Positions 2,402 through 59,600 of a DNA stretch of 64,000 nucleotides are shown here, piece after piece (the stretch's first letter is position 1; each line of letters starts with the position of its first letter). A program made the position numbers and the translations under genes. This stretch comes from Escherichia coli 042. Lineage in GTDB: Bacteria; Pseudomonadota; Gammaproteobacteria; Enterobacterales; Enterobacteriaceae. The notes beneath the pieces were generated by a model. The model was not told the origin of the DNA. It did no database searches and worked only from the letters and a program-made list of their open reading frames with translations. Where the stretch lies: the NCBI RefSeq assembly GCF_000027125.1, contig NC_017626.1; one strand, given 5' to 3'.

Positions 2402-5465
<3,064 letters not shown>

Positions 5466-5518
5466 GCGGATTGAGATGTGGACTGAATATCTACAGTCCA
5501 CATCAAGATCGTGTCCGC

Positions 5519-6133
<615 letters not shown>

Positions 6134-6324
6134 TTATAGATGTTTGAATGGGCGATGCCCCGTTGCTTGTTGACACTTTATTCACAATCCTGCCACAGAG
6201 ATAGCGCAATAAATCGAAGCCTATGTTCGAATTTATTGAACAACGCATAGAAAGCCGCGATGTGGTACTCTATATCTATCATTTAAAAGAAAATTAATCA
6301 GGCAGCCTACTGCCCACTAACGTT

Positions 6325-9300
6325 ATGACAGAACAACAAAAATTGACCTTTACGGCCTTGCAGCAGCGGCTGGATTCGCTGATGCTGCGCGACAGACAGC
6401 GTTTTTCTCGCCGTCTGCACGGCGTGAAGAAGGTTAAAAATCCTGATGCACAACAGGCCATTTTCCAGGAGATGGCGAAAGAGATTGACCATGCGGCAGG
6501 GAAAGTCCTGCTGCGTGAAGCGGCACGACCGGAAATCACTTATCCGGACAATTTGCCGGTTAGTCAGAAAAAGCAGGACATTCTCGAAGCAATTCGTGAT
6601 CACCAGGTAGTGATCGTCGCCGGGGAAACGGGTTCCGGTAAAACGACTCAGCTACCGAAAATCTGTATGGAGCTGGGCCGCGGGATTAAAGGGCTGATCG
6701 GCCATACCCAGCCGCGTCGTCTGGCGGCGCGAACGGTGGCGAACCGTATTGCGGAAGAGCTGAAAACGGAGCCGGGCGGTTGCATCGGTTACAAAGTGCG
6801 TTTCAGCGATCACGTAAGTGATAACACGATGGTCAAGCTGATGACCGACGGTATCCTGCTGGCGGAGATCCAGCAAGACCGCCTGCTGATGCAGTACGAC
6901 ACCATCATTATTGACGAAGCGCACGAACGCAGCCTGAATATCGATTTTCTGCTCGGCTATTTGAAAGAGTTGCTGCCGCGGCGTCCTGACCTAAAAATCA
7001 TTATCACTTCCGCGACTATCGACCCGGAACGCTTTTCGCGCCACTTTAATAATGCGCCGATTATCGAAGTCTCCGGTCGGACCTATCCGGTGGAAGTGCG
7101 CTATCGCCCGATTGTTGAAGAAGCCGATGATACCGAGCGCGATCAGTTGCAGGCGATTTTTGACGCTGTAGACGAACTGAGCCAGGAAAGCCCTGGCGAC
7201 ATTCTGATCTTTATGAGTGGTGAGCGGGAAATTCGCGATACCGCCGATGCGCTGAACAAGCTGAACTTACGCCATACCGAAATCTTGCCGCTTTATGCGC
7301 GGCTTTCGAACAGCGAACAGAACCGCGTGTTCCAGTCGCACAGTGGACGGCGCATTGTGCTGGCGACCAACGTCGCGGAAACCTCGCTGACCGTACCGGG
7401 GATTAAATACGTTATCGACCCAGGTACGGCGCGTATCAGCCGCTACAGCTATCGCACTAAAGTGCAGCGTTTGCCGATTGAGCCGATTTCTCAGGCGTCT
7501 GCCAACCAGCGTAAAGGCCGCTGTGGTCGTGTGTCAGAAGGGATCTGTATTCGTCTCTATTCGGAAGATGATTTCCTGTCGCGCCCGGAGTTTACCGATC
7601 CGGAGATTCTGCGTACCAACCTGGCCTCGGTTATTTTACAGATGACCGCGTTGGGGCTGGGTGATATCGCCGCGTTCCCATTTGTCGAAGCGCCGGATAA
7701 ACGTAATATCCAGGATGGCGTGCGTCTGCTCGAAGAGCTGGGCGCGATCACCACTGATGAACAGGCCAGCGCCTATAAACTGACGCCGCTCGGTCGCCAG
7801 CTTTCGCAATTGCCTGTCGATCCTCGTCTGGCGCGTATGGTGCTGGAAGCGCAAAAACATGGCTGCGTGCGTGAGGCGATGATTATCACGTCCGCGCTCT
7901 CCATCCAGGATCCGCGCGAACGACCGATGGACAAACAGCAGGCATCGGACGAAAAACATCGTCGCTTCCACGACAAAGAATCCGACTTCCTCGCGTTTGT
8001 AAATCTGTGGAATTATCTTGGCGAGCAGCAAAAGGCGCTTTCTTCCAACGCCTTCCGTCGCCTGTGTCGTACCGATTATCTCAACTATCTGCGCGTGCGC
8101 GAATGGCAGGATATCTACACCCAGTTGCGCCAGGTAGTAAAAGAACTTGGCATTCCAGTTAACAGCGAACCGGCGGAGTATCGCGAAATTCACATCGCCT
8201 TACTGACCGGTTTGCTTTCCCATATCGGCATGAAAGATGCCGATAAACAAGAATATACCGGCGCACGTAACGCGCGTTTTTCCATCTTTCCCGGTTCTGG
8301 TTTATTCAAAAAGCCGCCGAAATGGGTAATGGTGGCGGAACTGGTAGAAACCAGCCGCCTGTGGGGGCGCATTGCGGCACGCATCGATCCAGAATGGGTG
8401 GAGCCAGTTGCTCAGCATTTAATTAAACGCACCTACAGCGAACCACACTGGGAACGGGCGCAGGGCGCGGTGATGGCAACGGAAAAAGTCACCGTTTACG
8501 GGTTGCCGATTGTTGCCGCGCGTAAGGTCAACTACAGCCAGATCGATCCGGCGTTATGTCGTGAACTCTTTATTCGCCACGCGCTGGTGGAAGGTGACTG
8601 GCAGACACGTCATGCATTCTTCCGTGAAAACCTGAAACTGCGGGCTGAAGTGGAAGAACTGGAACACAAAACACGTCGCCGCGATATTCTGGTGGATGAC
8701 GAAACGCTGTTTGAGTTTTATGACCAGCGCATCAGCCACGATGTGATCTCTGCACGTCACTTCGACAGCTGGTGGAAAAAAGTCAGCCGCGAAACGCCTG
8801 ATTTGCTCAACTTTGAAAAGAGCATGTTGATCAAAGAAGGGGCGGAAAAGATCAGCAAGCTGGATTACCCGAACTTCTGGCATCAGGGCAATCTCAAACT
8901 GCGTTTGAGCTATCAGTTTGAGCCGGGGGCAGATGCTGACGGTGTGACTGTGCATATCCCGCTGCCGTTACTTAACCAGGTTGAGGAGAGCGGGTTTGAG
9001 TGGCAGATCCCCGGTCTGCGCCGCGAACTGGTGATTGCTCTGATTAAATCGTTGCCGAAACCAGTACGCCGTAATTTTGTGCCCGCGCCAAACTACGCCG
9101 AAGCTTTTTTAGGCCGCGTCACACCGCTGGAATTGCCGTTGCTCGACAGCCTTGAACGAGAGCTGCGGCGGATGACTGGCGTCACCGTTGACCGCGAAGA
9201 CTGGCACTGGGATCAGGTGCCCGATCACCTGAAAATCACCTTCCGCGTGGTGGATGACAAAAACAAGAAGCTAAAAGAAGGGCGCTCATTACAGGATCTG

Positions 9301-10227
9301 AAAGATGCTCTGAAAGGCAAAGTGCAGGAAACGCTGTCTGCGGTGGCGGATGACGGTATCGAGCAGAGCGGCTTACATATCTGGAGTTTTGGGCAACTGC
9401 CGGAAAGCTACGAACAGAAGCGTGGCAACTACAAAGTGAAGGCGTGGCCAGCGTTGGTGGATGAGCGCGACAGCGTGGCGATCAAACTGTTTGATAACCC
9501 GCTGGAACAAAAGCAGGCAATGTGGAACGGTCTTCGCCGTTTACTGCTGCTGAATATTCCGTCGCCAATCAAATATTTGCATGAGAAGTTGCCAAACAAA
9601 GCCAAACTTGGGCTGTACTTTAACCCGTATGGCAAAGTGCTGGAGCTGATAGACGACTGTATCTCCTGCGGTGTGGATCAACTGATCGACGCCAATGGTG
9701 GCCCGGTCTGGACGGAAGAAGGCTTTGCTGCGCTGCATGAAAAAGTCCGCGCTGAACTGAACGACACGGTGGTGGATATTGCGAAGCAGGTCGAGCAAAT
9801 CCTTACGGCAGTGTTCAATATCAACAAACGCCTGAAAGGGCGGGTGGATATGACCATGGCGCTGGGGCTTTCTGACATTAAAGCGCAGATGGGCGGGCTG
9901 GTGTATCGCGGTTTTGTCACTGGCAACGGTTTTAAACGGCTGGGCGACACGCTGCGTTATTTGCAGGCGATTGAAAAACGACTGGAAAAACTGGCGGTTG
10001 ATCCGCATCGCGACCGTGCTCAGATGCTGAAAGTCGAAAATGTCCAGCAGGCGTGGCAGCAGTGGATCAACAAACTGCCGCCTGCACGTCGTGAGGATGA
10101 AGACGTGAAAGAGATCCGTTGGATGATAGAAGAGTTGCGCGTCAGCTACTTCGCTCAACAACTTGGTACGCCTTATCCGATTTCGGATAAGCGTATTTTG
10201 CAGGCGATGGAGCAGATTAGCGGTTAA
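6325..10227 (+). CDS. hrpA: ATP-dependent RNA helicase HrpA (DEAH-box)
   Basis: 1300-aa ORF with Walker A GETGSGKTTQ, DEAH box and helicase C-terminal motifs. Confidence 0.96.
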   Translation: MTEQQKLTFTALQQRLDSLMLRDRQRFSRRLHGVKKVKNPDAQQAIFQEMAKEIDHAAGKVLLREAARPEITYPDNLPVSQKKQDILEAIRDHQVVIVAGETGSGKTTQLPKICMELGRGIKGLIGHTQPRRLAARTVANRIAEELKTEPGGCIGYKVRFSDHVSDNTMVKLMTDGILLAEIQQDRLLMQYDTIIIDEAHERSLNIDFLLGYLKELLPRRPDLKIIITSATIDPERFSRHFNNAPIIEVSGRTYPVEVRYRPIVEEADDTERDQLQAIFDAVDELSQESPGDILIFMSGEREIRDTADALNKLNLRHTEILPLYARLSNSEQNRVFQSHSGRRIVLATNVAETSLTVPGIKYVIDPGTARISRYSYRTKVQRLPIEPISQASANQRKGRCGRVSEGICIRLYSEDDFLSRPEFTDPEILRTNLASVILQMTALGLGDIAAFPFVEAPDKRNIQDGVRLLEELGAITTDEQASAYKLTPLGRQLSQLPVDPRLARMVLEAQKHGCVREAMIITSALSIQDPRERPMDKQQASDEKHRRFHDKESDFLAFVNLWNYLGEQQKALSSNAFRRLCRTDYLNYLRVREWQDIYTQLRQVVKELGIPVNSEPAEYREIHIALLTGLLSHIGMKDADKQEYTGARNARFSIFPGSGLFKKPPKWVMVAELVETSRLWGRIAARIDPEWVEPVAQHLIKRTYSEPHWERAQGAVMATEKVTVYGLPIVAARKVNYSQIDPALCRELFIRHALVEGDWQTRHAFFRENLKLRAEVEELEHKTRRRDILVDDETLFEFYDQRISHDVISARHFDSWWKKVSRETPDLLNFEKSMLIKEGAEKISKLDYPNFWHQGNLKLRLSYQFEPGADADGVTVHIPLPLLNQVEESGFEWQIPGLRRELVIALIKSLPKPVRRNFVPAPNYAEAFLGRVTPLELPLLDSLERELRRMTGVTVDREDWHWDQVPDHLKITFRVVDDKNKKLKEGRSLQDLKDALKGKVQETLSAVADDGIEQSGLHIWSFGQLPESYEQKRGNYKVKAWPALVDERDSVAIKLFDNPLEQKQAMWNGLRRLLLLNIPSPIKYLHEKLPNKAKLGLYFNPYGKVLELIDDCISCGVDQLIDANGGPVWTEEGFAALHEKVRAELNDTVVDIAKQVEQILTAVFNINKRLKGRVDMTMALGLSDIKAQMGGLVYRGFVTGNGFKRLGDTLRYLQAIEKRLEKLAVDPHRDRAQMLKVENVQQAWQQWINKLPPARREDEDVKEIRWMIEELRVSYFAQQLGTPYPISDKRILQAMEQISG

Positions 10228-10457: not shown

Positions 10458-10850
10458 ATGAAAAACTTCCAGAGGAAATTTTATCAGAAAATAATGGATT
10501 GGATTAATAGTATGAAAAATGTAGACAATATTATCTGGCATGATGGTGTTTTAGTTGAAACAAGAATGGAATGTCACCACGCCGGGTATAATTTTATATT
10601 GACGACAGAACTTTATGTTGATGAATTTACAGCCGGAAGGGAACGAAAAAGATTCGAGTTTACAGGAGTGGAACATTTATCGCAGGTTATGGATATTGCT
10701 GAGCTTATAGATAACCAAAACGCAGGTAATATTAAAGATGCGACAATTGTTTATAAGGCAAAGAAGTATGAAATTTCACTTCATTTGTTTGGCGGTTTTT
10801 TAAGTTTTACATTTAAAACCATGCGAGTTGTTGACAATGAATTTGAGTAA
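10458..10850 (+). CDS. Hypothetical protein, islet ORF A (start uncertain)
   Basis: 130-codon ORF in an AT-rich block; alternative starts at 10494 and 10512; no recognisable motif; its stop overlaps ORF B. Confidence 0.45.
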   Translation: MKNFQRKFYQKIMDWINSMKNVDNIIWHDGVLVETRMECHHAGYNFILTTELYVDEFTAGRERKRFEFTGVEHLSQVMDIAELIDNQNAGNIKDATIVYKAKKYEISLHLFGGFLSFTFKTMRVVDNEFE

Positions 10851-11286
10851 TGCCAAATGCGACAAATTGTCTTTTTATGAAGAAAAAATCCGCTGGCGAA
10901 TGCGTCGGCAAATCTCGAATGCAGAGGCAATATTTTACGAGAATCAGGAAGAACACATTCAGCGCTTTTTAGGCAGATATACCTGTCGCAAACCGGTTCT
11001 TGTTTATTGGGAAAGTGAACAAAGATGGACATCTGTAAACGGTCTGGAAGTGATGAGTATGTTTGATGGGCATTGTCATCACATCTACCTTGATGATATC
11101 AATAAAAAAATACAAGCTGAATTACCTGAAGATAAAACATTAGGTTTCAAACGTCAATTGCAATTTTTCAGTTTAGGGGATGAGAAGATTAGAATATGGG
11201 TGCCACAGGGGGAATTATATTTCGCATTAATGAATGTATTGCAGATGTTCCCCCTGAAGAAAATGGTTAATGACTGGACAAGGTAA
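10828..11286 (+). CDS. Hypothetical protein, islet ORF B
   Basis: 152-codon ORF (alternative start 10837) overlapping the end of ORF A, suggesting translational coupling; AT-rich; no recognisable motif. Confidence 0.45.
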   Translation: MLTMNLSNAKCDKLSFYEEKIRWRMRRQISNAEAIFYENQEEHIQRFLGRYTCRKPVLVYWESEQRWTSVNGLEVMSMFDGHCHHIYLDDINKKIQAELPEDKTLGFKRQLQFFSLGDEKIRIWVPQGELYFALMNVLQMFPLKKMVNDWTR

Positions 11287-11404
11287 TTTCAAATCACAGT
11301 AATGTCCATCGATTATACATGGTACGTAAACAGACTCGCACCGTTTTTGCAGAAGGTTAATGTGTGTCTATTGAGTGCAGTCTCATATATGAAGGGGTAT
11401 TGAC

Positions 11405-11782
11405 ATGGATGAATGTTTTATAAATATCACTCCGACTTCATTGTCTTTTAAAAACGCCGATCTGTCAGATTTAAGCTATAAAAATGCCAGGCTTGAACTT
11501 ACCCTGATATGCCCGGCGATCAAGTCAGAAGTTAAGTTATCATTTGACTGGATACATTCATTTCGTGTTACTGACGAAGGTGATTTGTTAGGAATGTCAG
11601 GAATGCACGGTATTAACCAAACAGGTATCTATAGAGTAGTGAATTCCGCCTATTTTTCATGGTTTACTATGCAAAGTTGTGAAATTTATAAAAATAATGT
11701 GATCGAGCATTATGTCATTGCCACGTCAAATGATGTTATTGATGTTTTATCAACAGTTTCTCCGCAAATACAGTATGACTAA
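11405..11782 (+). CDS. Hypothetical protein, islet ORF C
   Basis: 125-codon ORF on the same strand, 118 bp downstream of ORF B; AT-rich; no recognisable motif. Confidence 0.4.
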   Translation: MDECFINITPTSLSFKNADLSDLSYKNARLELTLICPAIKSEVKLSFDWIHSFRVTDEGDLLGMSGMHGINQTGIYRVVNSAYFSWFTMQSCEIYKNNVIEHYVIATSNDVIDVLSTVSPQIQYD

Positions 11783-11897: not shown

Positions 11898-12698
11898 ATG
11901 AACATTACCCCGTTTCCGACGCTTTCGCCGGCAACCATAGATGCCATAAATGTTATCGGTCAGTGGCTGGCGTAGGATGATTTCTCCGGTGAGATGCCGT
12001 ATCAGGCCGATTGCGTGATCCTTGCAGGCAATGCGGTTATGCCAACTATCGATGCGGCATGCAAGATTGCCCGCGATCAGCAAATTCCTCTACTGATTAG
12101 TGGTGGTATCGGTCACTCGACAACTTTTTTGTATAGTGCCATCGCACAGCATCCGCACTACAACACTATCCGCACCACTGGCAGAGCAGAAGCTACCATC
12201 CTGGCGGATATCGCTCATCAGTACTGGCACATTCCGCATGAAAAAATCTGGATTGAAGACCAGTCAACAAACTGCGGTGAAAACGCACGCTTTAGCATCT
12301 CGCTATTGAATCAGGCCGTAGAACGAGTTCATACGGCTATCGTTGTTCAGGACCCCACAATGCAGCGGCGCACGATGGCGACGTTCCGCCGTATGACTGG
12401 GGACAATCCCGATGCACCACGCTGGTTAAGTTATCCCGGATTCGTTCCTCAGCTAGGAAACAACGCAGACAGTGTAATCTTTGTTAATCCGTTGCAAGGA
12501 TTATGGCCGGTTGAGCGTTATCTCTCACTACTCACTGGCGAGCTGCCACGTTTACGCGATGATAGCGATGGCTACGGTCCACGCGGGCGAGATTTTATCG
12601 TTCACGTTGATTTTCCGGCAGAAGTCATCCAGGCATGGCAAACGCTGAAACACGATGCGGTGCTCATCGAGGCGATGGAAAGTCGCTCGTTACGTTAA
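11898..12698 (+). pseudogene. ydcF: ydcF (DUF218 family) carrying an in-frame amber codon at codon 26
   Basis: Strong SD (aaggagg) plus ATG at 11898; frame reads MNITPFPTLSPATIDAINVIGQWLA, then TAG at 11973..11975, then continues in the same frame; next ATG at 11994 gives the 234-codon ORF. The two parts total 266 codons, the length remembered for K-12 YdcF. Confidence 0.6.
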
Positions 12699-39930: not shown

Positions 39931-41355
39931 ATGCAACATAAGTTACTGATTAACGGAGAACTGGTTAGCGGCGAAGGGGAGAAACAGCCTGTCTATAATC
40001 CGGCAACGGGGGAAGTTTTACTGGAGATTGCCGAGGCATCTGCAGAGCAGGTCGATGCCGCTGTTCGTGCAGCAGATGCAGCATTTGCCGAATGGGGGCA
40101 AACCACGCCGAAAGCGCGTGCGGAATGCCTGCTGAAACTGGCGGATGTAATCGAAGAAAATGGTCAAGTTTTTGCCGAACTGGAGTCCCGTAACTGTGGC
40201 AAACCGCTGCATAGTGCGTTCAATGATGAAATTCCGGCGATTGTCGATGTCTTTCGCTTTTTCGCCGGAGCAGCTCGCTGCCTGAATGGTCTGGCGGCAG
40301 GTGAATATCTTGAAGGTCATACTTCGATGATCCGTCGCGATCCGTTGGGGGTCGTGGCTTCGATCGCACCGTGGAATTATCCGCTGATGATGGCTGCGTG
40401 GAAACTGGCTCCGGCGCTGGCGGCAGGGAATTGCGTAGTGCTCAAACCATCAGAAATTACCCCGCTGACAGCGTTGAAGTTGGCAGAGCTGGCGAAAGAT
40501 ATCTTCCCAGCTGGCGTGATTAACGTGCTGTTTGGCAGAGGCAAAACGGTGGGCGATCCGCTGACCGGACATCCCAAAGTACGGATGGTGTCACTGACGG
40601 GCTCTATCGCCACTGGGGAACACATCATCAGCCATACCGCGCCGTCCATAAAGCTTACTCATATGGAACTTGGAGGCAAAGCGCCAGTGATAGTTTTTGA
40701 TGATGCGGATATTGAAGCGGTGGTCGAAGGTGTACGTACTTTTGGCTATTACAATGCCGGACAGGATTGTACTGCGGCTTGTCGGATCTACGCGCAAAAA
40801 GGTATTTACGATACGCTGGTGGAAAAACTCGGTGCTGCAGTGGCAACGTTAAAATCTGGTGCGCCGGATGACGAGTCTACGGAGCTTGGACCTTTAAGCT
40901 CACTGGCGCATCTCGATCGCGTCAGCAAAGCAGTAGAAGAGGCGAAAGCGACAGGGCACATCAAAGTGATCACTGGCGGTGAAAAGCGCAAGGGTAATGG
41001 CTATTACTATGCGCCGACGCTACTGGCTGGCGCATTACAGGACGATGCCATCGTGCAAAAAGAGGTATTTGGTCCGGTAGTGAGTGTTACGCTCTTTGAC
41101 AATGAAGAACAGGTGGTAAACTGGGCAAATGACAGCCAGTACGGACTTGCATCCTCGGTATGGACGAAAGATGTGGGCAGGGCGCATCGCGTCAGCGCAC
41201 GGCTACAATATGGTTGTACCTGGGTCAATACCCATTTCATGCTGGTAAGTGAAATGCCGCACGGTGGGCAGAAACTTTCTGGTTACGGCAAGGATATGTC
41301 ACTTTATGGGCTGGAGGATTACACCGTCGTCCGCCACGTCATGGTTAAACATTAA
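39931..41355 (+). CDS. patD: Gamma-aminobutyraldehyde dehydrogenase
   Basis: 474-aa aldehyde dehydrogenase ORF (MELGGKAP, catalytic Cys region). Confidence 0.94.
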
Positions 41356-41577
41356 GTTAAATGTTAGTGGCTGTTATAGGGCGGCCACTATCGTTTTAGG
41401 TTCTGAGTGTAATGGTGATTAAGTATCAGAATGATTACATTAATAACTAGCGGAAAAATTAGGCAGTTATTATGATCTAAATGTATGTTGGTGATTTTTC
41501 ATCCTGTCATAGTTGATTCGCATAAGGCTTTAGAGTATCGTTATTAACCTAATAATTTATAAGTAGAAGTATTAACA

Positions 41578-42387
41578 ATGAAAGTTCAATTGTATAAATT
41601 CACGGAAGATAAAAATAAAACCCTTACCTTCAGGTGGACGAAAAAACACTTTGAGTTTTGTATGGATAATAAAATCTTTTTAAATCATAAGGGGAAGAAG
41701 TCGTATAAAGAAAGAAATTTATTTCTTTTCTCAAAAGGTGACAAGATAACAATTGAAGATAATGTTATTGCTGAAGAATATTCAACAATGCCTGTAAAAA
41801 ATTTCTCCAGTGTCGGCGCTTTTTCATTCCCGACCTGTCATTTTACAGGGAATATACATATAGGTCGATTTTGTAGTATTGCATCAAATGTAAAAATAAT
41901 GGGTGGAAATCATCCTTTGAATCGTTTTACTACTCACATGATGACTTATAACGGTGAATTTGATAAGTTTGCTAAGAGTGAGTTTGAACGTAGCTGGACA
42001 TTGAAACCATTCATTACCAAACCTGAAAATCCGATTATAGGAAATGATGTCTGGATAGGAAATGATGTTGTACTGAAAGGTGGCATCGCAATAGGTGATG
42101 GTGCTGTTATTGCTGCCAATTCCGTTGTTACCAAAGATGTGCCCCCATATGCCATAGTTGCAGGAGTTCCTGCAAAAATAATCAGATTTAGATTTGATTC
42201 AAATGTTATTGATGAATTGTTGAGAATAAAGTGGTGGAATTATAATTACTCAGATCTTCCGGATAATAACAAATGTGATGATATAAATTATTTTGTTGAA
42301 GAGATGAATCGATTGATATCAAATGGAAATATTCAAGAGATGGACTATAAAAAATTCAATCTTTCTGAGATATTTAGAGACCTATAA
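41578..42387 (+). CDS. Hexapeptide-repeat xenobiotic-acetyltransferase (XAT/Vat/CatB-like) family protein with N-terminal extension
   Basis: 269-aa ORF in an AT-rich block; C-terminal half has a left-handed beta-helix signature (GNDVWIGNDVVLKGGIAIGDGAVIAANSVVTKDVPPYAIVAGVPAKIIRFRF) and an XAT-like loop GGNHPLNRFTTHMMTY; about 80 N-terminal residues have no counterpart in typical 210-220-aa Vat/CatB proteins. Confidence 0.6.
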   Translation: MKVQLYKFTEDKNKTLTFRWTKKHFEFCMDNKIFLNHKGKKSYKERNLFLFSKGDKITIEDNVIAEEYSTMPVKNFSSVGAFSFPTCHFTGNIHIGRFCSIASNVKIMGGNHPLNRFTTHMMTYNGEFDKFAKSEFERSWTLKPFITKPENPIIGNDVWIGNDVVLKGGIAIGDGAVIAANSVVTKDVPPYAIVAGVPAKIIRFRFDSNVIDELLRIKWWNYNYSDLPDNNKCDDINYFVEEMNRLISNGNIQEMDYKKFNLSEIFRDL

Positions 42388-42788
42388 TTATCTGTTCTGC
42401 ATGATAAATGGGCAAGATAACCAGTTCGGGGTTTGCAATTTCAATGGGACAGCGTCATCAAGGAGGTTGCAATCATCCTGCCATGCATATACTTTACGCC
42501 ATCTTTTTATATTTACTTTATTCCCTGAAAGTATAAAGCATTTATAGACTCCCGCGCGTCTAAAGTATTGATGATAGAAAAATGTGAAAACAAGGTTCCC
42601 TTTGAATCAGTAAGCTGTCTGTATAGACGACAGGAGGGGGATGTTTTCTACTTATTTCAATGTAGATGTCAGGAAAAAGAAGTAAATATTAAGGATAATG
42701 TTGTAAACCTGGAGAGTATGAGATGATCTTGCGTACTGTCAGAGCACTGATTTCTCTGACAGTACGTGCTGCGTGCAAAATCACTACA

Positions 42789-42884
42789 TCAAATAAACCA
42801 GCCAAATCTCATAGAGATAAGAGTAAACAAACCAACAGCAGCAAAGACATTTATCAGTACTACAGTTCTACTGGAAACATTCAT
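42789..42884 (-). CDS. yncL: Small membrane protein YncL
   Basis: Minus-strand 31-aa ORF MNVSSRTVVLINVFAAVGLFTLISMRFGWFI with SD aaggtgg; an inverted repeat (42733..42766) follows its 3' end. Confidence 0.75.
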   Translation of the reverse strand: MNVSSRTVVLINVFAAVGLFTLISMRFGWFI

Positions 42885-43078
42885 TTTTGCCACCTTTTAT
42901 CATTGCCCCTATGTGTATAGTACGGGTTAAGAAAATCCGCAATAATACTCATTCTGAAGATGGATAAGGGCAAGTTGCTGTTTGATGATTTTTTCTCAAA
43001 CTGGTGAAAAAACTTGATGCACGTCAAAAAATGACGCATATTTGCGCGCGTTTTATTCATCTGGCTGGACGCCCGTAC

Positions 43079-43252
43079 ATGTCTCTCTATCAACACATGC
43101 TTGTTTTTTATGCGGTTATGGCAGCAATCGCATTTCTTATCACCTGGTTTCTTTCTCACGATAAGAAACGCATCCGTTTCTTAAGCGCCTTTCTGGTGGG
43201 GGCAACATGGCCGATGAGTTTCCCGGTGGCGCTGTTGTTTTCACTGTTTTAA
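43079..43252 (+). CDS. ortT: Orphan toxin OrtT (YdcX), GhoT-like membrane peptide
   Basis: 57-aa ORF MSLYQHMLVFYAVMAAIAFLITWFLSHDKKRIRFLSAFLVGATWPMSFPVALLFSLF. Confidence 0.8.
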   Translation: MSLYQHMLVFYAVMAAIAFLITWFLSHDKKRIRFLSAFLVGATWPMSFPVALLFSLF

Positions 43253-43337
43253 ATCTTACTCACTGGCTTGACGGCACCACACAGACTTATATCATTTGGA
43301 TGAATCGATAAATTTCACAAGTGGCTAAGGAGAAAGT

Positions 43338-53396: not shown

Positions 53397-55802
53397 ATGT
53401 CCTTAAAAGGTCTTCGCTTTACGCTGGAGGTTGACGGCCAGGAGCCGGACACCTTTGCAGTGGTGAATTTCAGGTTAATCCAGAACCAGTCATATCCGTT
53501 TGTGATGAGTGTGGATGTTGCCAGCGACTCTTTTATGCAGACGGCGGAGATGCTGCTGGAGAAGAAGGCGACACTGACCATCTGGCAGGGCGCAGTGGCG
53601 CAGCGTTATGTCACCGGCGTGGTGGCGGGTTTTGGCATGCAGGAGAATAACGGCTGGCAGATGCGTTATCACCTGCGTATTGAGCCGCCGTTATGGCGGT
53701 GCGGGCTGCGGCAGAACTTTCGTATCTTCCAGCAGCAGGATATCCGGACGATATCGGCCACGTTACTGAACGAGAACGGCGTCACGGAGTGGACGCCGCT
53801 GTTTTATGAGGACCATCCGGCGCGGGAGTTCTGTGTCCAGTACGGGGAGTCGGACCTGGCGTTTCTGTCCCGGCTGTGGGCGGAGGAGGGTCTTTTCTTC
53901 TTTGAGCGGTTTGCGGCGGACAGTCCGGAGCAGAAGCTGACGCTGTGCGACGATGTGGCGGGGCTGTCACAGGCGGGGGAGTTTCCGTTTAACCCGGACA
54001 CATCGGCAGGTGCGGAGACGGAGTGTGTCAGTATGTTCCGTTATGAGGCGCATGTCCGCCCGTCATCGGTGCAGAGCCAGGATTACACCTTTAAGGTGCC
54101 GGACTGGCCGGGGATGTATGAGCAGCAGGGTGAGAACCTGAACGGACAGCTGGAGCAGTATGAGATATTTGATTATCCGGGAAGGTACAAGGATGAACAG
54201 CACGGCAAGGATTTCACGCTGTACCAGATGGAGAGCCTGCGCAGTGATGCGGAAAAGGCCACAGGGCAGAGTAATTCGCCGAAGCTGTGGCCGGGAACGC
54301 GGTTTATGCTGACGGGGCATCCGCAGAAGATGCTGAACCGTGAATGGCAGGTGGTACAGAGCATACTGTCAGGAAACCAGCCGCAGGCGCTGCACGGCAG
54401 CCAGGGAAAGGGAACCACGCTGGGCAATCAGTTAGAGGTGATACCGGCGGACCGGACGTGGCGTCCACGGCTGCAAAACAAACCGAAGGTGGACGGGCCA
54501 CAGAGCGCCATCGTCACCGGTCCTGCGGGAGAGGAAATCTTCTGCGATGAACATGGACGGGTACGGGTGAAGTTCCACTGGGACCGTTATCACGGGATGA
54601 CGGAGGCGAGTTCATGCTGGGTGCGGGTATCGCAGGCGTGGGCGGGGCCGGGGTTCGGTAACCTGGCGATACCACGGGTGGGTCAGGAGGTGATAGTGGA
54701 CTTCCTGAACGGCGACCCGGACCAGCCGATAATCATGGGGCGGACGTACCATGAGGACAACCGTTCGCCGGGCGACCTGCCGGGAACGAAGACGCAGATG
54801 ACCATCCGGTCAAAAACCTATAAAGGAAGCGGATTTAACGAGCTGCGGTTTGAAGACGCCACCAGTAATGAGCAGGTGTATATCCATGCCCAGAAGAACA
54901 TGGATACGGAGGTGCTCAACGACCGGACAACGGATGTGAAACATGACCATACGGAAACCATCGGGAACGACCAGAAGATAACGGTGGTGAAGGGGCAGAC
55001 GGTTCAGGTCGGGACCAGAAAAGAAGGGGGCCACGACCAGAGTATCACGGTGGCGAACGACCGGTGCATCACGGTACGTAATGACCAGACGCTGCAGGTG
55101 ACGAATGACCGGACGGTGAGCGTGAGTAATGATGACGGCCTGTACGTCAGAAATGACCGTAAAGTGACGGTGGAAGGGAAGCAGGAGCATAAGACGACGG
55201 GGAACCATATCAGTCTGGTGGAGGGAAAGCACAGCCTGGTGGTGAAGGGGGACCTGGCGAGGAAGGTGAGTGGCGCGCTGGGGATAAAGGTGGACGGGGA
55301 TATCGTGCTGGAGAGCAGCAGCCGGATAAGCCTGAAGGTGAGTGGCTCGTTTGTGGTCATCCATTCAGGGGGCGTGGACATCGTCGGGCCGAAAATCAAT
55401 CTCAATAGCGGCGGTAGTCCGGGGACGCCGGTGCCGGCGCTGCAACCGGCGGTGCTGAAGACACTGGGGGATGAGAAGAGTGGTGATGGCAGTGATTCCG
55501 GAGAAGAAAATGAAGACTCTGGAGGGAACTGCGTGACCGGAAGTGGTGGTGATGATCGAGGTGACGATGAGGATGAACCTGAAAAATATACTCTCCAGTT
55601 CCATTTTACAGACGATGACGGGATACCGTATTCAGAAACCCGCTACATTGCCTTCTTTGAGGATGGCACGCAGACCCGCGGAGAAACGGATGAAGAGGGG
55701 TATACAGAGCGTTTTTTTGTATCTAGCAAACATGAAATTAAAGTGAAGTTGTTATTTGCGAATGATGATTTTCTCTCAATGGAAGGACACTATGGACGAT
55801 AA
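53397..55802 (+). CDS. vgrG: Type VI secretion spike protein VgrG with C-terminal extension
   Basis: 801-aa ORF with gp27/gp5-like N-terminal two thirds, beta-helix repeat region (TVSVSNDDGLYVRNDRKVTV...), then an acidic Gly/Ser/Asp linker and a ~70-aa C-terminal domain. Confidence 0.9.
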   Translation: MSLKGLRFTLEVDGQEPDTFAVVNFRLIQNQSYPFVMSVDVASDSFMQTAEMLLEKKATLTIWQGAVAQRYVTGVVAGFGMQENNGWQMRYHLRIEPPLWRCGLRQNFRIFQQQDIRTISATLLNENGVTEWTPLFYEDHPAREFCVQYGESDLAFLSRLWAEEGLFFFERFAADSPEQKLTLCDDVAGLSQAGEFPFNPDTSAGAETECVSMFRYEAHVRPSSVQSQDYTFKVPDWPGMYEQQGENLNGQLEQYEIFDYPGRYKDEQHGKDFTLYQMESLRSDAEKATGQSNSPKLWPGTRFMLTGHPQKMLNREWQVVQSILSGNQPQALHGSQGKGTTLGNQLEVIPADRTWRPRLQNKPKVDGPQSAIVTGPAGEEIFCDEHGRVRVKFHWDRYHGMTEASSCWVRVSQAWAGPGFGNLAIPRVGQEVIVDFLNGDPDQPIIMGRTYHEDNRSPGDLPGTKTQMTIRSKTYKGSGFNELRFEDATSNEQVYIHAQKNMDTEVLNDRTTDVKHDHTETIGNDQKITVVKGQTVQVGTRKEGGHDQSITVANDRCITVRNDQTLQVTNDRTVSVSNDDGLYVRNDRKVTVEGKQEHKTTGNHISLVEGKHSLVVKGDLARKVSGALGIKVDGDIVLESSSRISLKVSGSFVVIHSGGVDIVGPKINLNSGGSPGTPVPALQPAVLKTLGDEKSGDGSDSGEENEDSGGNCVTGSGGDDRGDDEDEPEKYTLQFHFTDDDGIPYSETRYIAFFEDGTQTRGETDEEGYTERFFVSSKHEIKVKLLFANDDFLSMEGHYGR

Positions 55803-56583
55803 TAATCAAACTTCTGGACAACCAAAGCCAGAGCCAGAAGAATGTGTGAAAGAGCAAAAAATAACTGATCATTTTAAAATAATGATTGATAAGGCTCGTA
55901 AGGCACAAAAGTTGGTTTTGATAAAAAGAGCAGATGATCTTTTGAGATGGGGAGCACAGGAGGAATATGATTTCAGTAAGATCTTTGGTGTTAAAGGAAA
56001 TAAGGAGGTTAATATAAGAAAATATGGACATAATACAGGTAGGCGCATGAATGCTAGATTTCTTATGATGGATGGTGTGAGAAGATTAATGATTATAGCT
56101 AATGATTTAACAATGAGCAGTTTTATAAATTATACAGGTTGTAATGAATTTGCAGCATTCGTCAGCCCAAGTAAGGATATGCCCTATATAATTAACATAG
56201 GCGCAAAATTTGAGTATAGAGATGGCAAAAAAAATCCAGTAACGGGAAAGGATTCTCATGTTGCTACTTTATGTCATGAAATGTCTCATATTCAGTGGTA
56301 TTATGGGGATAATAAAAAAGGTGGTATGTGGTCACAGGATTATACAACTACTGATAAATATTCAACGTGCAAAGAGGATGAAGTTTCATATGACGAACAT
56401 ATCCGTATTGCAACTAAACTGATCTCTAAACAAAAAGATCAAATATTCGAGAATGCATATAACATAGAAAGATATTTTGAAATAAGATTAATTGAAAGTG
56501 AGATAGACTCGATTAATGATGAAATATTAAGCAATTCAGTTAAGAAAAAAATAGCGGAATTAGAAAAAGCACTTCTCCATTAA
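55792..56583 (+). CDS. Putative T6SS cargo effector with HExxH zinc-metallopeptidase motif
   Basis: 263 codons from ATG 55792, which overlaps the last 11 bp of vgrG; motif TLCHEMSHIQWYYG (HEXXH); no signal peptide or TM segment. Confidence 0.6.
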   Translation: MDDNNQTSGQPKPEPEECVKEQKITDHFKIMIDKARKAQKLVLIKRADDLLRWGAQEEYDFSKIFGVKGNKEVNIRKYGHNTGRRMNARFLMMDGVRRLMIIANDLTMSSFINYTGCNEFAAFVSPSKDMPYIINIGAKFEYRDGKKNPVTGKDSHVATLCHEMSHIQWYYGDNKKGGMWSQDYTTTDKYSTCKEDEVSYDEHIRIATKLISKQKDQIFENAYNIERYFEIRLIESEIDSINDEILSNSVKKKIAELEKALLH

Positions 56584-56606
56584 CTAATAAGTCGAGAAAT
56601 ATATTA

Positions 56607-57428
56607 ATGCTGCAAGCTATAAAAAAAATCATAATAATGACAATCGTAAATATTATATTTTTCTATTCCTTTCAATCGACTGCGGATGAAATGGTTTTAA
56701 TAAAAAAATACGGGTTTGGGCTTGAGAGAGATATCAAAGGAAGGCCATTAATTTATCCTATCGAAAATTATGATGAGTGTAAGAAAAAATGCAATCATAT
56801 GAATTATATAGCGGATGTCAATGCTCAATTAGCTATGAGTAAAAAAAATAACAGGATTTTTGCTAACATAACCTTTACTAACAATAGCTCTACCACGTAT
56901 TTTTTTTCTAAATATTACCTACCTATGAAAGTAAAAGATGGAAAAGGAGATGAATATGATGCGATATGCAAAAAACCATTCAGAATCAACTCTGGGAATA
57001 TCACGTTGGACTACTTAGGTGGTTCATGTCCTTTTGAAATTAATACGAATCCTGAACGGTGGAATACTATTAAACCAGGTCGTAGTTTTTTGTTGAGTAT
57101 AACCTTAAATGATATGTATGCCTTTATACCAGGAGATAATTATTATTTTATAAAATCATCTGGCTATAAATTTGTTAATGACAAGTGGTTTACACTCAAA
57201 TCAATCAATAATATTTTTCTTTATTTTTTAAATTTAAAAATTAATTGTGCTGATGATTTTTTTGATATTAATAATTTTACTACATGTGATAATTTGTTAT
57301 TAGATGAAAAAAAACACTTTTTTATTAATCAGTTATGGGCAATTGAGGATGAAAAAAATTCTATTTACGTCACCCCTGATGAAATTTCTATAAGTATAGA
57401 CGGCGATAACTTAAAGTTGCCATATTAG
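56607..57428 (+). CDS. Putative cognate immunity protein (secreted/periplasmic)
   Basis: 273-aa ORF 23 bp after the effector; N-terminal signal peptide (IIIMTIVNIIFFYSFQSTA/DE); AT-rich; no recognisable domain. Confidence 0.5.
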   Translation: MLQAIKKIIIMTIVNIIFFYSFQSTADEMVLIKKYGFGLERDIKGRPLIYPIENYDECKKKCNHMNYIADVNAQLAMSKKNNRIFANITFTNNSSTTYFFSKYYLPMKVKDGKGDEYDAICKKPFRINSGNITLDYLGGSCPFEINTNPERWNTIKPGRSFLLSITLNDMYAFIPGDNYYFIKSSGYKFVNDKWFTLKSINNIFLYFLNLKINCADDFFDINNFTTCDNLLLDEKKHFFINQLWAIEDEKNSIYVTPDEISISIDGDNLKLPY

Positions 57429-57447
57429 GAATCTGTGAAAGAACAAG

Positions 57448-57936
57448 GTGCGCCGCTTTTTTGTACTAAATAATTCGCATTTTAGTCACGGCAGAGAAGA
57501 AATCCATCTTCATATTGTTTGCGATGTCCCTGATGAACTTATTGATTTCACGTTTGAATGGAAAGGTCAGAAGAAATTATGCGTGGCAGTCTCCTTTTGG
57601 TCAATAATAGCAGAACAAAAGAAAGAGCCAGAAATGACGGTCAGATATTATATCAGTTCTGCTGATTTAACCGCAAAAAAGTTCGCCACAGCGATACGAA
57701 ATCACTGGCACGTGGAGAATAAGCTGCACTGGCGTCTGGACGTGGTAATGAACGAAGACGACTGCAAAATAAGAAGAGGAAACGCCGCAGAATTATTTTC
57801 AGGGATACGGCACATCGCTATTAATATTTTAACGAATGATAAGGTATTCAAGGCAGGGTTAAGACGCAAGATGCGAAAAGCAGCTATGGACAGAGACTAC
57901 CTCGCGTCAGTCCTTGCGGGGAGCGGGCTTTCGTAA
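57448..57936 (+). pseudogene. H-repeat-associated (ISAs1-family transposase) C-terminal remnant
   Basis: 162-aa ORF whose C-terminal ~110 aa ([63 protein letters not shown]...) matches the C-terminus of H-rpt / ISAs1 transposases; N-terminal catalytic part absent. Confidence 0.75.
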
Positions 57937-58044
57937 TCTTGCCCTGGCGATCGAATAGCGCAGATGACGGTGCTCTAAATTTGAATCTAATAAGCCGGTG
58001 TTATTTTTCATCCACTATTAAAATCTTGACACAACGAGGCAACA

Positions 58045-58605
58045 ATGAAAAAAAGCAAAAAAATTAAAACAATGAACCATCAAAATAATAGCGGGATACA
58101 AAATCAACCAGACTATCACATCGAAATAGAAAGAAAAAATATGGTAAGATTGCTTGATGAACGTATTGATAAAGTTTACGGTTCATTGCTAGGACCAATG
58201 AAAAAGAAAAATATAGATAAAATACGTCATTTTACACTTGATGTAATGGTGTTTATTCTTGACACGAACCCTCGTGTTTGTAATAAATTATCCAGGGAAA
58301 TAATATCTTTAGCGCAAAATACCTTCATTGAAAAAAACGTTAATTTTTCAACTTTTAATAATGAACAGCATAGAATAAGGGAGTATATGAATGAAGGTGG
58401 TGGAATACGATGGTTTACATGGGATAACCCCGAGATATCTTTTGTTCGTGCATCTTTTGGCCTTTTTGTCAAAATGGAAACAAAAGGTGATCATGAACAT
58501 ACACTAAGTGACACATTTCTTCAGATTGTTGAGTGTGTTAATTTAAATATAGGACTTATTGCAAAAGATGAACTGGTAAAAATCATCAATAAACACTTTA
58601 TGTAA
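58045..58605 (+). CDS. Hypothetical protein (AT-rich orphan)
   Basis: 186-aa ORF in a low-GC block downstream of the H-rpt remnant; no recognisable motif. Confidence 0.4.
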   Translation: MKKSKKIKTMNHQNNSGIQNQPDYHIEIERKNMVRLLDERIDKVYGSLLGPMKKKNIDKIRHFTLDVMVFILDTNPRVCNKLSREIISLAQNTFIEKNVNFSTFNNEQHRIREYMNEGGGIRWFTWDNPEISFVRASFGLFVKMETKGDHEHTLSDTFLQIVECVNLNIGLIAKDELVKIINKHFM

Positions 58606-58964
58606 AAATATACTTCTGTATGAAGTTATAATAATACAGTGAAAATCATCAAATTATTAATTAATGATGCTCTTTGTTATTATTTACTTTTTACAATTGA
58701 ATCAGGGGTTTTATTTTCTGTAGTAAAGTTGTATTTTTGCTAAAGGTGATAAAGTACAGGTGTTTATATTAAATTAGAACTCCCCTTAATTATCATAAAT
58801 ACAAAGAGGTGAAAACATGCGGGGGTGTTTTCGTTAAATAATACCATGGTGAATTAATAACATGCTATCAGTGATATACATATTTTCTCTAACAAAGTTT
58901 TAGTAAAATTACGCGTAGTAAGAAGATTCCGCCAAAGATTCCATATAATAATATTAAGGTTGTT

Positions 58965-59600
58965 ATGAATAAAGGTAATAGATTACAACAGTTAGAAGAT
59001 GCGTGTCGTGATATTATTAAAATTAACATGTGGTATGAACTCCCCGATTATGTATTTTTTTCAATATCTGACACCATCGATGGGACGAGTGATGAATTCG
59101 CAATAAATGTGTATAAAAATATCGATAAAAGTCTTCTTGAAATATTATTGCATCCATCTGTTTTACTGTCAGTTGTTGAGTCCTTACAAAGTAATACTAT
59201 AGCTGAGTATATCGTGAAATTGTCTGAAATAGAGATGAATTATGACGACTTGCTAATATCGGATGTTAAATCATGTCTTTTTATCAACTATGGATTCAAT
59301 AACAGTGAATCGGTTGCGCTATTTAATAAGATTTACCGCGAATTAAAAGATATTGTAAAATCATCAAGAGTACATATAGATCATGAGAAAGATATTTTTG
59401 ATGGCCTTAATCAAATCTTGGCTTTTTCCGATAATAATAAACATGAGTATTTTTTATATATAAAGGCATATTGGCTCAGTTTATACTTTTGTGAAATTTC
59501 ACAGAACGTGAGAGAAAGAGATAAGTTGTCATTTTATTATAATGAATTTTCTGTCCGATTTCCTAATGTTGTCCTATATCCGTCATGCTACAAATTGTAA
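58965..59600 (+). CDS. Hypothetical protein (AT-rich orphan)
   Basis: 211-aa ORF in a low-GC block; no signal peptide; no recognisable motif. Confidence 0.4.
   Translation: MNKGNRLQQLEDACRDIIKINMWYELPDYVFFSISDTIDGTSDEFAINVYKNIDKSLLEILLHPSVLLSVVESLQSNTIAEYIVKLSEIEMNYDDLLISDVKSCLFINYGFNNSESVALFNKIYRELKDIVKSSRVHIDHEKDIFDGLNQILAFSDNNKHEYFLYIKAYWLSLYFCEISQNVRERDKLSFYYNEFSVRFPNVVLYPSCYKL

Follow-up and report, generated by a model that had tools for sequence, protein, structure and literature searches.

An AT-rich islet of Escherichia coli 042, absent from K-12, carries a single gene whose product is in all probability an acetyltransferase of the XAT structural class. Its sequence sets it apart, together with other N-extended XAT proteins of about 255–290 residues, as a distinct subfamily in which a module of about 55–75 residues stands ahead of the core. 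A sugar is a likelier substrate than a drug, and we assign a probability of roughly 0.45 to the reading in which the acceptor is a sugar hydroxyl on a cytoplasmic envelope glycoconjugate intermediate, such as an LPS or other glycan precursor. All positions refer to the window, the whole stretch of 64,000 nucleotides that was analysed.

The patD–yncL islet, its occupancy and selection

The interval between patD and yncL is the site of the islet and holds one gene. The low-GC block with a single 269-codon gene described in an earlier sequence-only reading is confirmed by open reading frame calls, GC content and RefSeq annotation, while its bounds, given there as 41360–42720, are corrected by alignment with K-12. 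The features of the locus are as follows.

39931–41355: patD (RefSeq annotation of an identical genome)
41346–41356, plus strand: left junction repeat TAAACATTAAG, which takes in the patD stop codon at 41353–41355
41357–42693, no strand assigned: AT-rich islet of 1337 bp, present here and absent from K-12, with bounds from the K-12 alignment
41365–41390, plus strand: terminator-like hairpin and T-run just past the patD stop, within the islet (consensus match only)
41497–41577, plus strand: leader and probable promoter region travelling with the gene (nucleotide homology with Citrobacter begins at 41497)
41529–41556, plus strand: weak sigma-70-like site in the leader, a match not above chance
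41578–42387, plus strand: XAT-fold acetyltransferase gene of 269 codons, RefSeq WP_000867994.1, "CatB-related O-acetyltransferase"
42388–42693, no strand assigned: non-coding tail of the islet, 306 bp, with no conserved ORF and no Rfam match
42683–42693, plus strand: right junction repeat TAAATATTAAG, sharing 10 of 11 bases with the left copy
42789–42884, minus strand: yncL (RefSeq annotation)

The GC content of the islet is 0.334, compared with 0.534 and 0.504 in its two flanks, and that of the gene alone is 0.325; scanned along the window, it stays at 0.29–0.39 over about 41300–43000 and at 0.51–0.56 in the flanks. The junction repeat is present as a single copy in K-12 and is common to both E. 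coli allele classes (L094 and L095). Terminal inverted repeats or transposon-type ends were sought on the islet and none was found, the 10/11 direct repeat being the sole junction feature. Nucleotide homology with the Citrobacter locus extends from 41497 to 42376, ending inside the ORF, and the 306-bp tail is not common to the Citrobacter or Cedecea loci. One terminator-like site was counted in 41250–43000, where shuffled sequences average 0.7, and Rfam returned no match over 41200–43300. The islet is best read as an old insertion of a single gene, acquired horizontally, at the 3′ end of patD. PADLOC gave no match either, and a defence-system role for the islet gene was rejected.

Occupancy of the patD–yncL interval across strains, a comparison that the sequence-only reading had proposed, places the gene in 1154–1155 of 5426 complete E. 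coli genomes, or about one in five (1154 when presence is counted as at least 80% coverage of a 1801-bp query), and it is missing from 79% of them, K-12 included. The insertion site is always the same; about 1151 of the 1155 carriers have an unbroken ORF, and IS1 interrupts a few copies. The gene is under purifying selection: dN/dS is 0.10–0.15 between E. coli alleles, with the ORF intact in both allele classes, and about 0.08 relative to Citrobacter with the N-terminal module included. In the N-terminal 75 codons, no nonsynonymous and 3–4 synonymous differences separate the E. coli alleles, and omega relative to Citrobacter is 0.08. These values, the intact frames and catalytic residues that are invariant across the family argue against regarding the gene as a silent, functionless remnant of an old horizontal transfer, a reading that seems highly improbable in spite of the AT-rich composition typical of xenogeneic DNA, the promoter-like matches not above chance, the few IS1-interrupted copies and the large share of strains that do without the gene.

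Protein architecture and enzyme class

The protein divides into three regions, and the positions of these and of two conserved residues are listed below.

41578–41802, plus strand: N-terminal module, codons 1–75 (alignment A2 and AF2 model)
41803–42192, plus strand: left-handed beta-helix with the XAT loop insert, codons 76–205 (Pfam, alignment A2 and AF2 model)
41911–41913, plus strand: codon CAT of the catalytic His112
42052–42054, plus strand: codon of Trp159
42193–42384, plus strand: C-terminal helical region, codons 206–269 (PDB sequence alignment and AF2 model)

In the AF2 model, computed for the monomer only (mean pLDDT 90.7), the loop insert spans about residues 109–152 with a helix at 126–136, and the C-terminal helices span residues 208–268. 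The sequence contains no signal peptide or transmembrane segment. Assignment to the XAT class, which had been proposed from the sequence, proved right on several lines of evidence. Pfam Hexapep matches with an E value of 1.8e-9, bearing out the hexapeptide beta-helix predicted for the C-terminal part; phmmer against the PDB finds Vat(D) as the best match (E 2.5e-29, query residues 61–230); and the top Foldseek matches in the PDB are Vat(D), VatA and CatB, with ApmA also among the top matches of both searches. The features of the structural class (LbH_XAT) are present, namely a left-handed beta-helix, an extended loop with a histidine at its start, C-terminal helices, and XAT enzymes as the nearest characterised relatives. 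His112 aligns with H82 of Vat(D), where the loop insert begins, and all 35 family members in alignment A2 have it; neither H112 nor W159 varies in A2 or in the larger set used for the core tree. The motif around this histidine, earlier written as NHxxxxxxTT, has the spacing NHx5TT (N111-H112-PLNRF-T118-T119) rather than NHx6TT.

The N-terminal module begins with a disordered stretch (residues 1–12), continues with a conserved core (F18-R19-W20...H24...I33-F34-L35...Y43...R46-N47...G54-x-K56-I57) and ends in the YSTMP segment (68–72); after the disordered start, the AF2 model shows one strand and one helix. The N-terminal extension noticed from the sequence does exist; it is conserved among orthologues and purifying selection acts on it, but its size had been overstated at about 80 residues. 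The Vat(D) alignment begins at query residue 59–61, corresponding to Vat residue 23–28, which leaves a surplus over Vat of about 33–35 residues at the N-terminus and about 20 at the C-terminus, and residues 60–80, thought to have no counterpart in Vat or CatB, do match these proteins as the EYSYY segment. A PDB sequence search with the N-terminal 96 residues alone gave chance matches only (E > 0.5). A profile of the module matched 53 clusters out of 1.84 billion, a XAT core lies downstream of the module in nine of nine longer or atypical proteins scanned with NCBIfam, and AFDB holds many full-length structural matches with TM scores of 0.76–0.85.

Comparison with drug- and sugar-acetylating enzymes

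The comparison with the Vat, CatB, LacA/Maa and WbbJ families, proposed as a check in the sequence-only reading, places the protein in none of them, since every family score lies under its cut-off. Among drug-acetylating families, NCBIfam Vat (NF000311) gives 125.5 bits against a cut-off of 300, CatB (NF000490) 105.7 against 350, and ApmA (NF000084) 81 against 550, the last matching on the core only. The residues that contact the substrate differ as well. In the case of Vat(D), Tyr37 and Asn92 hydrogen-bond streptogramin A, with Tyr37 bonding virginiamycin M1 (bioRxiv 10.1101/2025.01.31.635826), while CatB binds chloramphenicol through Tyr30 and Ser32 together with Pro8 and Gly11 of its N-terminal tail (PMC8096840). 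The query has Thr70 in place of Vat(D) Tyr37 and CatB Tyr30, and Pro72 in place of Vat(D) Asp39 and CatB Ser32, so that YSYY of Vat and CatB is replaced by YSTMP; the CatB3 motif RYSYYSG corresponds to query E67-Y68-S69-T70-M71-P72, the catB3 copy used being frameshifted and compared at its N-terminal motif only. CatB Pro8 and Gly11 have no alignable counterpart. Asn92 of Vat(D) is probably not kept: it falls opposite M122 in the pairwise alignment, and the multiple alignment is shifted by one position in a loop whose alignment is ambiguous.

The resemblance to these enzymes is nonetheless extensive. With Vat(D) (PDB 1KHR) the query shares the beta-helix, the histidine (H82 = H112), the tryptophan (W121 = W159) and the C-terminal "WW" helix segment, but it is longer by about 35 residues at the N-terminus and about 20 at the C-terminus, and unlike Vat its gene is chromosomal in a Gram-negative host and never on a plasmid. 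With CatB and PaXAT it has in common the XAT fold, the catalytic histidine and the loop insert, at a core identity of about 28–35%. ApmA is built on the same plan, with an extra N-terminal region joined to a XAT core, and is 274 residues long (PMC7885111), compared with 269 here; the 82 residues of its N-terminal region, however, form four strands and two helices, whereas the query module has a single strand and a single helix and resembles that region neither in sequence nor in fold. Fold alignments to ApmA span 162–185 positions. The YSTMP segment in place of YSYY, together with the extra module, indicates at the level of sequence that the protein lies outside the Vat, CatB and ApmA families.

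The earlier suggestion of a cryptic enzyme that modifies chloramphenicol or streptogramins is thus not supported, given the sub-threshold scores, the replaced binding tyrosine and a gene found on no true plasmid. A related proposal, in which a XAT of new specificity modifies an antibiotic or xenobiotic other than chloramphenicol or streptogramin A by O- or N-acetylation, with the module remodelling the pocket, accounts well for the identity of the nearest characterised proteins by sequence and Foldseek, the retained catalytic histidine and acetyl-subsite tryptophan, and the solitary gene, as is usual for resistance-type XAT genes. ApmA moreover offers a precedent of an N-extended XAT gaining a new drug substrate (PMC7885111). 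We nevertheless consider it unlikely, in view of scores below every curated resistance-family cut-off, the loss of the tyrosine that hydrogen-bonds both virginiamycin M1 and chloramphenicol, and an N-terminus unlike that of ApmA. The islet gene was never found on true plasmids, integrons or sequenced phages, and where the neighbourhoods of its nearest relatives are informative, they point to glycan genes and not to resistance contexts. In addition, E. coli is intrinsically insensitive to streptogramins.

The RefSeq label "CatB-related" derives from resemblance to CatB. Caution is needed with this name, as with "antibiotic acetyltransferase" and with "response to antibiotic", the GO term that plasmid-borne relatives carry, all of which hint at resistance; that reading finds no support in curated thresholds, in substrate-contact residues or in the genomic company of the relatives.

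The scores for the sugar O-acetyltransferase families also fall short of their cut-offs: WbbJ 70 against 243, LacA 59.8 against 347, Maa 52.9 against 314 and the WcaF family 48.5 against 192, with partial matches that lie mostly on about residues 145–207 and in some cases on 80–205. These matches bear on a further alternative, in which the enzyme acts like Maa or LacA and detoxifies or modifies a small free metabolite, so that an acetylated non-metabolisable sugar or other cytoplasmic compound is then expelled. A solitary, cytoplasmic protein with no signal peptide or transmembrane segment would suit such a role, and the Citrobacter copy adjoins nucleoside phosphorylase, MFS and Tsx genes, but the Maa, LacA and WbbJ matches cover only residues 153–205 or 80–205 far under their cut-offs, the XAT loop insert and C-terminal helices differ from Maa and LacA, and no transporter or catabolic gene accompanies it consistently from host to host; we regard this alternative as distinctly unlikely.

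The best NCBIfam match overall is TIGR03308, a phosphonate-cluster hexapeptide transferase, at 131.6 bits against a cut-off of 201.65. A phosphonate-pathway role was rejected on account of this sub-cut-off score, the lack of phn genes nearby and a different clade, the true phn-linked relative (L032) falling outside the query clade in the core tree.

Glycan-linked relatives and the proposed acceptor

Relatives that adjoin glycosyltransferase genes share 32–41% identity with the query over 80–92% of its length, have the same full-length architecture, and reach bit scores of 166–185, compared with 106 for Vat(D). In Brochothrix and Listeria they lie in XAT-GtfA-GtfB operons, in Enterococcus thailandicus in a teichoic-acid-type cluster, and in E. 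raffinosus directly downstream of a GT8 gene; glycosyltransferases and heptose genes stand beside the Azospirillum relative, a GT4 gene lies near that of Paracoccus, and the Vibrio bivalvicida protein is encoded in an LPS-core cluster with waaA, kdkA and heptosyltransferases. In the core tree, a neighbour-joining tree without support values, the enterobacterial clade joins the Vibrio LPS-core protein first and the glycan-linked clade of Firmicutes next, Vat(D) branching outside. The Firmicute relatives lack the FRW motif found in the N-terminal module of the enterobacterial proteins. The contig profile search with alignment A2, which supplied three neighbourhoods (L015, L029 and L032), gave generic XAT relatives whose identity did not exceed 49%, with no close orthologue among the matches listed. 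A sugar O-acetyltransferase, the other option raised in the sequence-only reading, fits the neighbourhoods of relatives better than a drug role does, an argument by association and not by orthology to a characterised enzyme.

Under the envelope-glycan reading, the protein would be a soluble, acetyl-CoA-dependent acyltransferase of the XAT class, presumed from its class to be a trimer. His112, placed where the loop insert begins, would serve as general base and take the proton from the acceptor hydroxyl, Trp159 would line the acetyl subsite, and the acetyl group would be passed to a sugar hydroxyl of the envelope intermediate in the cytoplasm. The N-terminal module may help to shape the acceptor pocket, because the N-terminal tail of CatB contacts its substrate and the N-terminal region of ApmA reshapes the substrate pocket. 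Counting against a glycan acceptor, carriers of the islet in E. coli have diverse O-antigens (O104, O111, O103 and O121), so that any glycan target would have to be a conserved one, and the characterised XAT-class enzymes all act on antibiotics (PMC7885111). Moreover, whereas the glycan-linked relatives lie in glycan operons, the copies in E. coli, Citrobacter, Cedecea, Rahnella, Apirhabdus and the P0032 genome stand alone, away from any glycan genes. A possible functional analogue of the GtfA/GtfB-linked relatives is Asp2 of the S. gordonii accessory Sec system, which O-acetylates GlcNAc placed by GtfAB on serine-rich repeat adhesins (PMC7948813); the parallel is one of genomic association only, as no sequence relationship between Asp2 and the query was found.

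A literature search on this gene, its clade, or XAT-like enzymes in glycan clusters found no biochemical characterisation. A broader proposal holds that the N-extended XATs form a family so far overlooked and that its enterobacterial branch acts on a new substrate of biological importance, either a natural product, in a novel resistance activity reminiscent of ApmA, or a conserved envelope glycan (LPS core or ECA); in this form it appears quite improbable. As it stands, the gene is an accessory, already annotated member of a well-known enzyme superfamily and matters little. If its acceptor were found, a function would follow for the whole subfamily across Proteobacteria and Firmicutes and might explain strain-variable surface modification in E. 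coli; envelope-glycan acetylation, if true, would alter how phages or the immune system recognise about one fifth of E. coli strains, B1-type STEC and EAEC lineages included.

Some homologues travel with phages: the Dickeya copy is phage cargo, and the Providencia homologue (56% identity) is prophage cargo lying between a tail-fibre gene and a GT52 glycosyltransferase gene, a neighbourhood that adds to the glycan link. In PHROGs, one unnamed family was matched, over the core only.

Location, distribution and conservation of the islet

The interval between patD and yncL has a GC content of 0.29-0.39, compared with 0.51-0.56 in the flanks, and contains a single ORF of 269 codons; the identical RefSeq sequence (strain Ecol_316) is annotated as WP_000867994.1, "CatB-related O-acetyltransferase". 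The GC drop, the ORF and the annotation together confirm the low-GC block with one 269-codon gene that had been proposed from the sequence alone. Alignment with K-12 delimits the extra DNA to 1337 bp (41357-42693), flanked by an imperfect 11-bp direct repeat of which K-12 keeps one copy.

Features of the patD-yncL region
3' end at 41355: ydcSTUV-patD operon, E. coli chromosome
41346-41356: left repeat TAAACATTAAG, overlapping the patD stop codon
41578-42387, + strand: single ORF of 269 codons, between patD and yncL
42683-42693: right repeat TAAATATTAAG
42789-42884, - strand: yncL, then ortT, ydcY, ydcZ, mnaT and curA, all downstream of the islet

Inspection of the ends and ORFs of the islet revealed neither terminal inverted repeats nor mobility genes, and the 11-bp repeat is compatible with target duplication or precise microhomology deletion. 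A perfect hairpin (GTACTGTCAGAG...CTCTGACAGTAC, 42720-42760) stands just beyond the right junction of the islet, on the yncL side; K-12 has it too, and it was probably the bidirectional terminator serving patD and yncL before the insert parted it from patD.

The gene occurs in 1155 of 5426 complete E. coli genomes (21%), always as one chromosomal copy, and IS1 interrupts a few copies. One allele class has at least 99% identity to the window (188 genomes) and a second approximately 97.4% (963 genomes, including O104:H4, O111:H8, O103:H2 and O121 strains). Junctions are identical in both classes, which implies one ancestral event. The classes differ by 2.6% in the ORF (dS ~0.09) and by a comparable 3.4% at the adjoining end of patD, indicating that the insert is old compared with the split between these lineages. 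Sequenced phages contained no close copy of the gene, and a plasmid collection search found it in no true plasmid; the sole 100% match, NZ_CP141089.1, a 4.94-Mb E. coli record filed in PLSDB as a plasmid, is evidently a chromosome.

Between E. coli alleles, dN/dS is 0.10-0.15, and codons 1-75 differ only at synonymous sites (3-4 changes, none nonsynonymous); against Citrobacter, omega for these codons is ~0.08, with dS saturated. This constraint indicates that the N-terminal extension is translated, and the annotated start is credible because the alternative start, Met29, would drop a conserved FRW motif. As judged by these substitution patterns, the islet gene is functional; a silent remnant, which these selection data contradict, is very improbable.

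Two other low-GC regions were observed in the window. Three small + strand ORFs (130, 152 and 125 aa) occupy an islet of GC ~0.39 at 10458-11782, between hrpA (6325-10227) and a ydcF-like ORF (11994-12698). At 53397-59600, a VgrG-like ORF of 801 aa (53397-55802) precedes a block that is very AT-rich (GC 0.29-0.36). Within this block, one ORF (275 aa) has a CHEMSH (HExxH-like) motif and another (273 aa) a hydrophobic N-terminus; the block also holds a 162-aa H-repeat/ISAs1-like transposase fragment and two ORFs of 186 and 211 aa. The region resembles a type VI spike-effector-immunity island.

Enzyme class, N-terminal module and drug-contact residues

The protein belongs to the xenobiotic acetyltransferase (XAT) structural class, an assignment that is secure. 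Pfam detected hexapeptide repeats, and the best solved relative by sequence is Vat(D) (E 2.5e-29; residues 61-230 aligned with Vat 28-192), with VatA, several CatB enzymes and ApmA as further relatives. A confident AlphaFold model (pLDDT 90.7), built on 35 homologues, predicts a disordered segment (1-12), a strand (15-19), a helix (22-30) and then a beta-helix, with a helix (126-136) in a loop insert and C-terminal helices (208-268). Foldseek ranked Vat(D), VatA and CatB highest in the PDB and aligned ApmA over the core only. His112 and Trp159, which align with catalytic His82 and Trp121 of Vat(D), are invariant in the family and wider relatives; the catalytic His loop is therefore kept. The chemistry expected of the class is acetylation of a hydroxyl or amine on the acceptor with acetyl-CoA as donor, in which His112 would act as the base.

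The N-terminal extension, put at ~80 residues in the sequence-only reading, shrinks to a surplus of ~35 over Vat(D), with ~20 more at the C-terminus. Its conserved stretch runs from F18-R19-W20 through the YSTMP segment; it matched no PDB sequence and, in structure, not the N-terminal region of ApmA. Only 53 clusters among 1.84 billion representatives matched the module profile, and in all nine longer or atypical module proteins scanned with NCBIfam the module precedes the XAT core. AFDB50 contains many full-length fold matches (TM 0.76-0.85), the architecture of 250-290 residues being common, from alpha-proteobacteria, Campylobacter, Listeria, Staphylococcus, Enterococcus and lactobacilli, so the extension is a feature of a sizeable, uncharacterised subfamily and not an E. 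coli peculiarity.

A few module proteins bear an extra ~100-residue domain, and one carries ATP-grasp ligase domains as fusion partners. Such fusions of the N-extended XAT unit are rare: two involve ATP-grasp ligase domains and one a glycerophosphodiester phosphodiesterase (P0136, a 1081-aa protein with two ATP-grasp domains; A0A0S3EYZ9, 1013 aa, from Sphingobium baderi; A0A0V8E142, 663 aa, from Lactococcus lactis). The ATP-grasp domains resemble those of cyanophycin synthetase and GshAB, a hint that some branches may act in amino-acid/peptide or glycerol-phosphate chemistry.

NCBIfam scores lie below the cut-offs for Vat (125.5; cut-off 300), CatB (105.7; 350) and ApmA (81; 550), as does the nominal top match, phosphonate-cluster TIGR03308 (131.6; 201.65). 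In Vat(D), Tyr37 hydrogen-bonds virginiamycin M1 (bioRxiv 10.1101/2025.01.31.635826), and CatB binds chloramphenicol through Tyr30 and Ser32 of its RYSYYSG segment and Pro8 and Gly11 of its N-terminal tail (PMC8096840). The equivalent segment here is E67-Y68-S69-T70-M71-P72, and every family member lacks the drug-contact Tyr at that position; Asn92 of Vat is apparently not conserved either, in a loop where the alignment is ambiguous. These scores and lost contacts rule out Vat, CatB or ApmA identity. An enzyme modifying chloramphenicol or streptogramin, as suggested earlier, is thus not supported, although the catalytic His is retained, and a xenobiotic or antibiotic acetyltransferase of new specificity is unlikely. 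The islet gene is an already annotated, uncharacterised member of a known superfamily, whose resistance-flavoured annotation has no evidence behind it.

Genomic context and candidate acceptor

We tentatively favour a cytoplasmic glycan-type O-acetyltransferase (probability roughly 0.45), for three reasons: relatives closer than Vat and CatB sit within glycan pathways, the protein has lost the drug-contact residues, and one of its enterobacterial orthologues is placed where phages classically carry a surface-modification gene. Outside Enterobacterales, homologues consistently keep company with glycan genes, unlike the solitary enterobacterial copies. In Brochothrix and Listeria innocua, the homologue (40-41% identity, ~90% coverage) opens an operon that also encodes GtfA and GtfB, the paired glycosyltransferases of serine-rich-repeat adhesins; the short L. 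innocua contig shows no gene for a serine-rich-repeat substrate. Others lie within a teichoic-acid-type cluster (Enterococcus thailandicus), directly 3' of a GT8 gene (E. raffinosus), among glycosyltransferase and heptose-synthesis genes (Azospirillum), after a GT4 gene and type I secretion genes (Paracoccus) and inside an LPS-core cluster with waaA, kdkA and heptosyltransferases (Vibrio bivalvicida). In a core-region neighbour-joining tree without support values, the enterobacterial clade groups with the Vibrio LPS-core protein and next with the Firmicute glycan-linked proteins, Vat(D) falling outside. An analogy is offered by the unrelated Asp2, which O-acetylates GlcNAc on serine-rich adhesins (PMC7948813).

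Within Enterobacterales the gene is solitary, at a different site in each genus.

Enterobacterial homologues and their neighbours
Citrobacter, 77% identity: between a GNAT gene and nucleoside phosphorylase/MFS/Tsx genes
Cedecea, 71% identity: after a chemoreceptor gene
P0032 genome, 57% identity: after icd
Apirhabdus, 53% identity: no glycan genes nearby
Rahnella, 46% identity: after a chemoreceptor gene

DNA-level homology with the Citrobacter locus covers only the gene and ~80 bp upstream, and gene GC is below its flanks in every host. Two facts speak against the glycan assignment: in E. coli no glycan genes adjoin the gene, and O-antigens are varied among its carriers, so any glycan target would have to be a conserved structure. 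Acetylation of a free small molecule, as by Maa/LacA, is rather improbable.

Two homologues are phage cargo: that of Dickeya follows phage tail/lysozyme and small-terminase genes, and that of Providencia rettgeri (56% identity) is flanked by a tail-fibre gene and a GT52 glycosyltransferase gene, with DarTG or a retron and an integrase nearby.

On the L. innocua contig (886-6568), a gene pair for PAPS-reductase/DUF3440 and ParB_N proteins (IbrA/IbrB-like) comes after the XAT-like/GtfA/GtfB operon. Besides the homologue, the prophage cargo of the two P. rettgeri loci (3785-9400), which adjoins the integrase, includes the GT52 gene, a 250-aa gene that lacks annotation and, as alternatives, DarT-DarG or a retron-like pair of reverse transcriptase and AAA ATPase.
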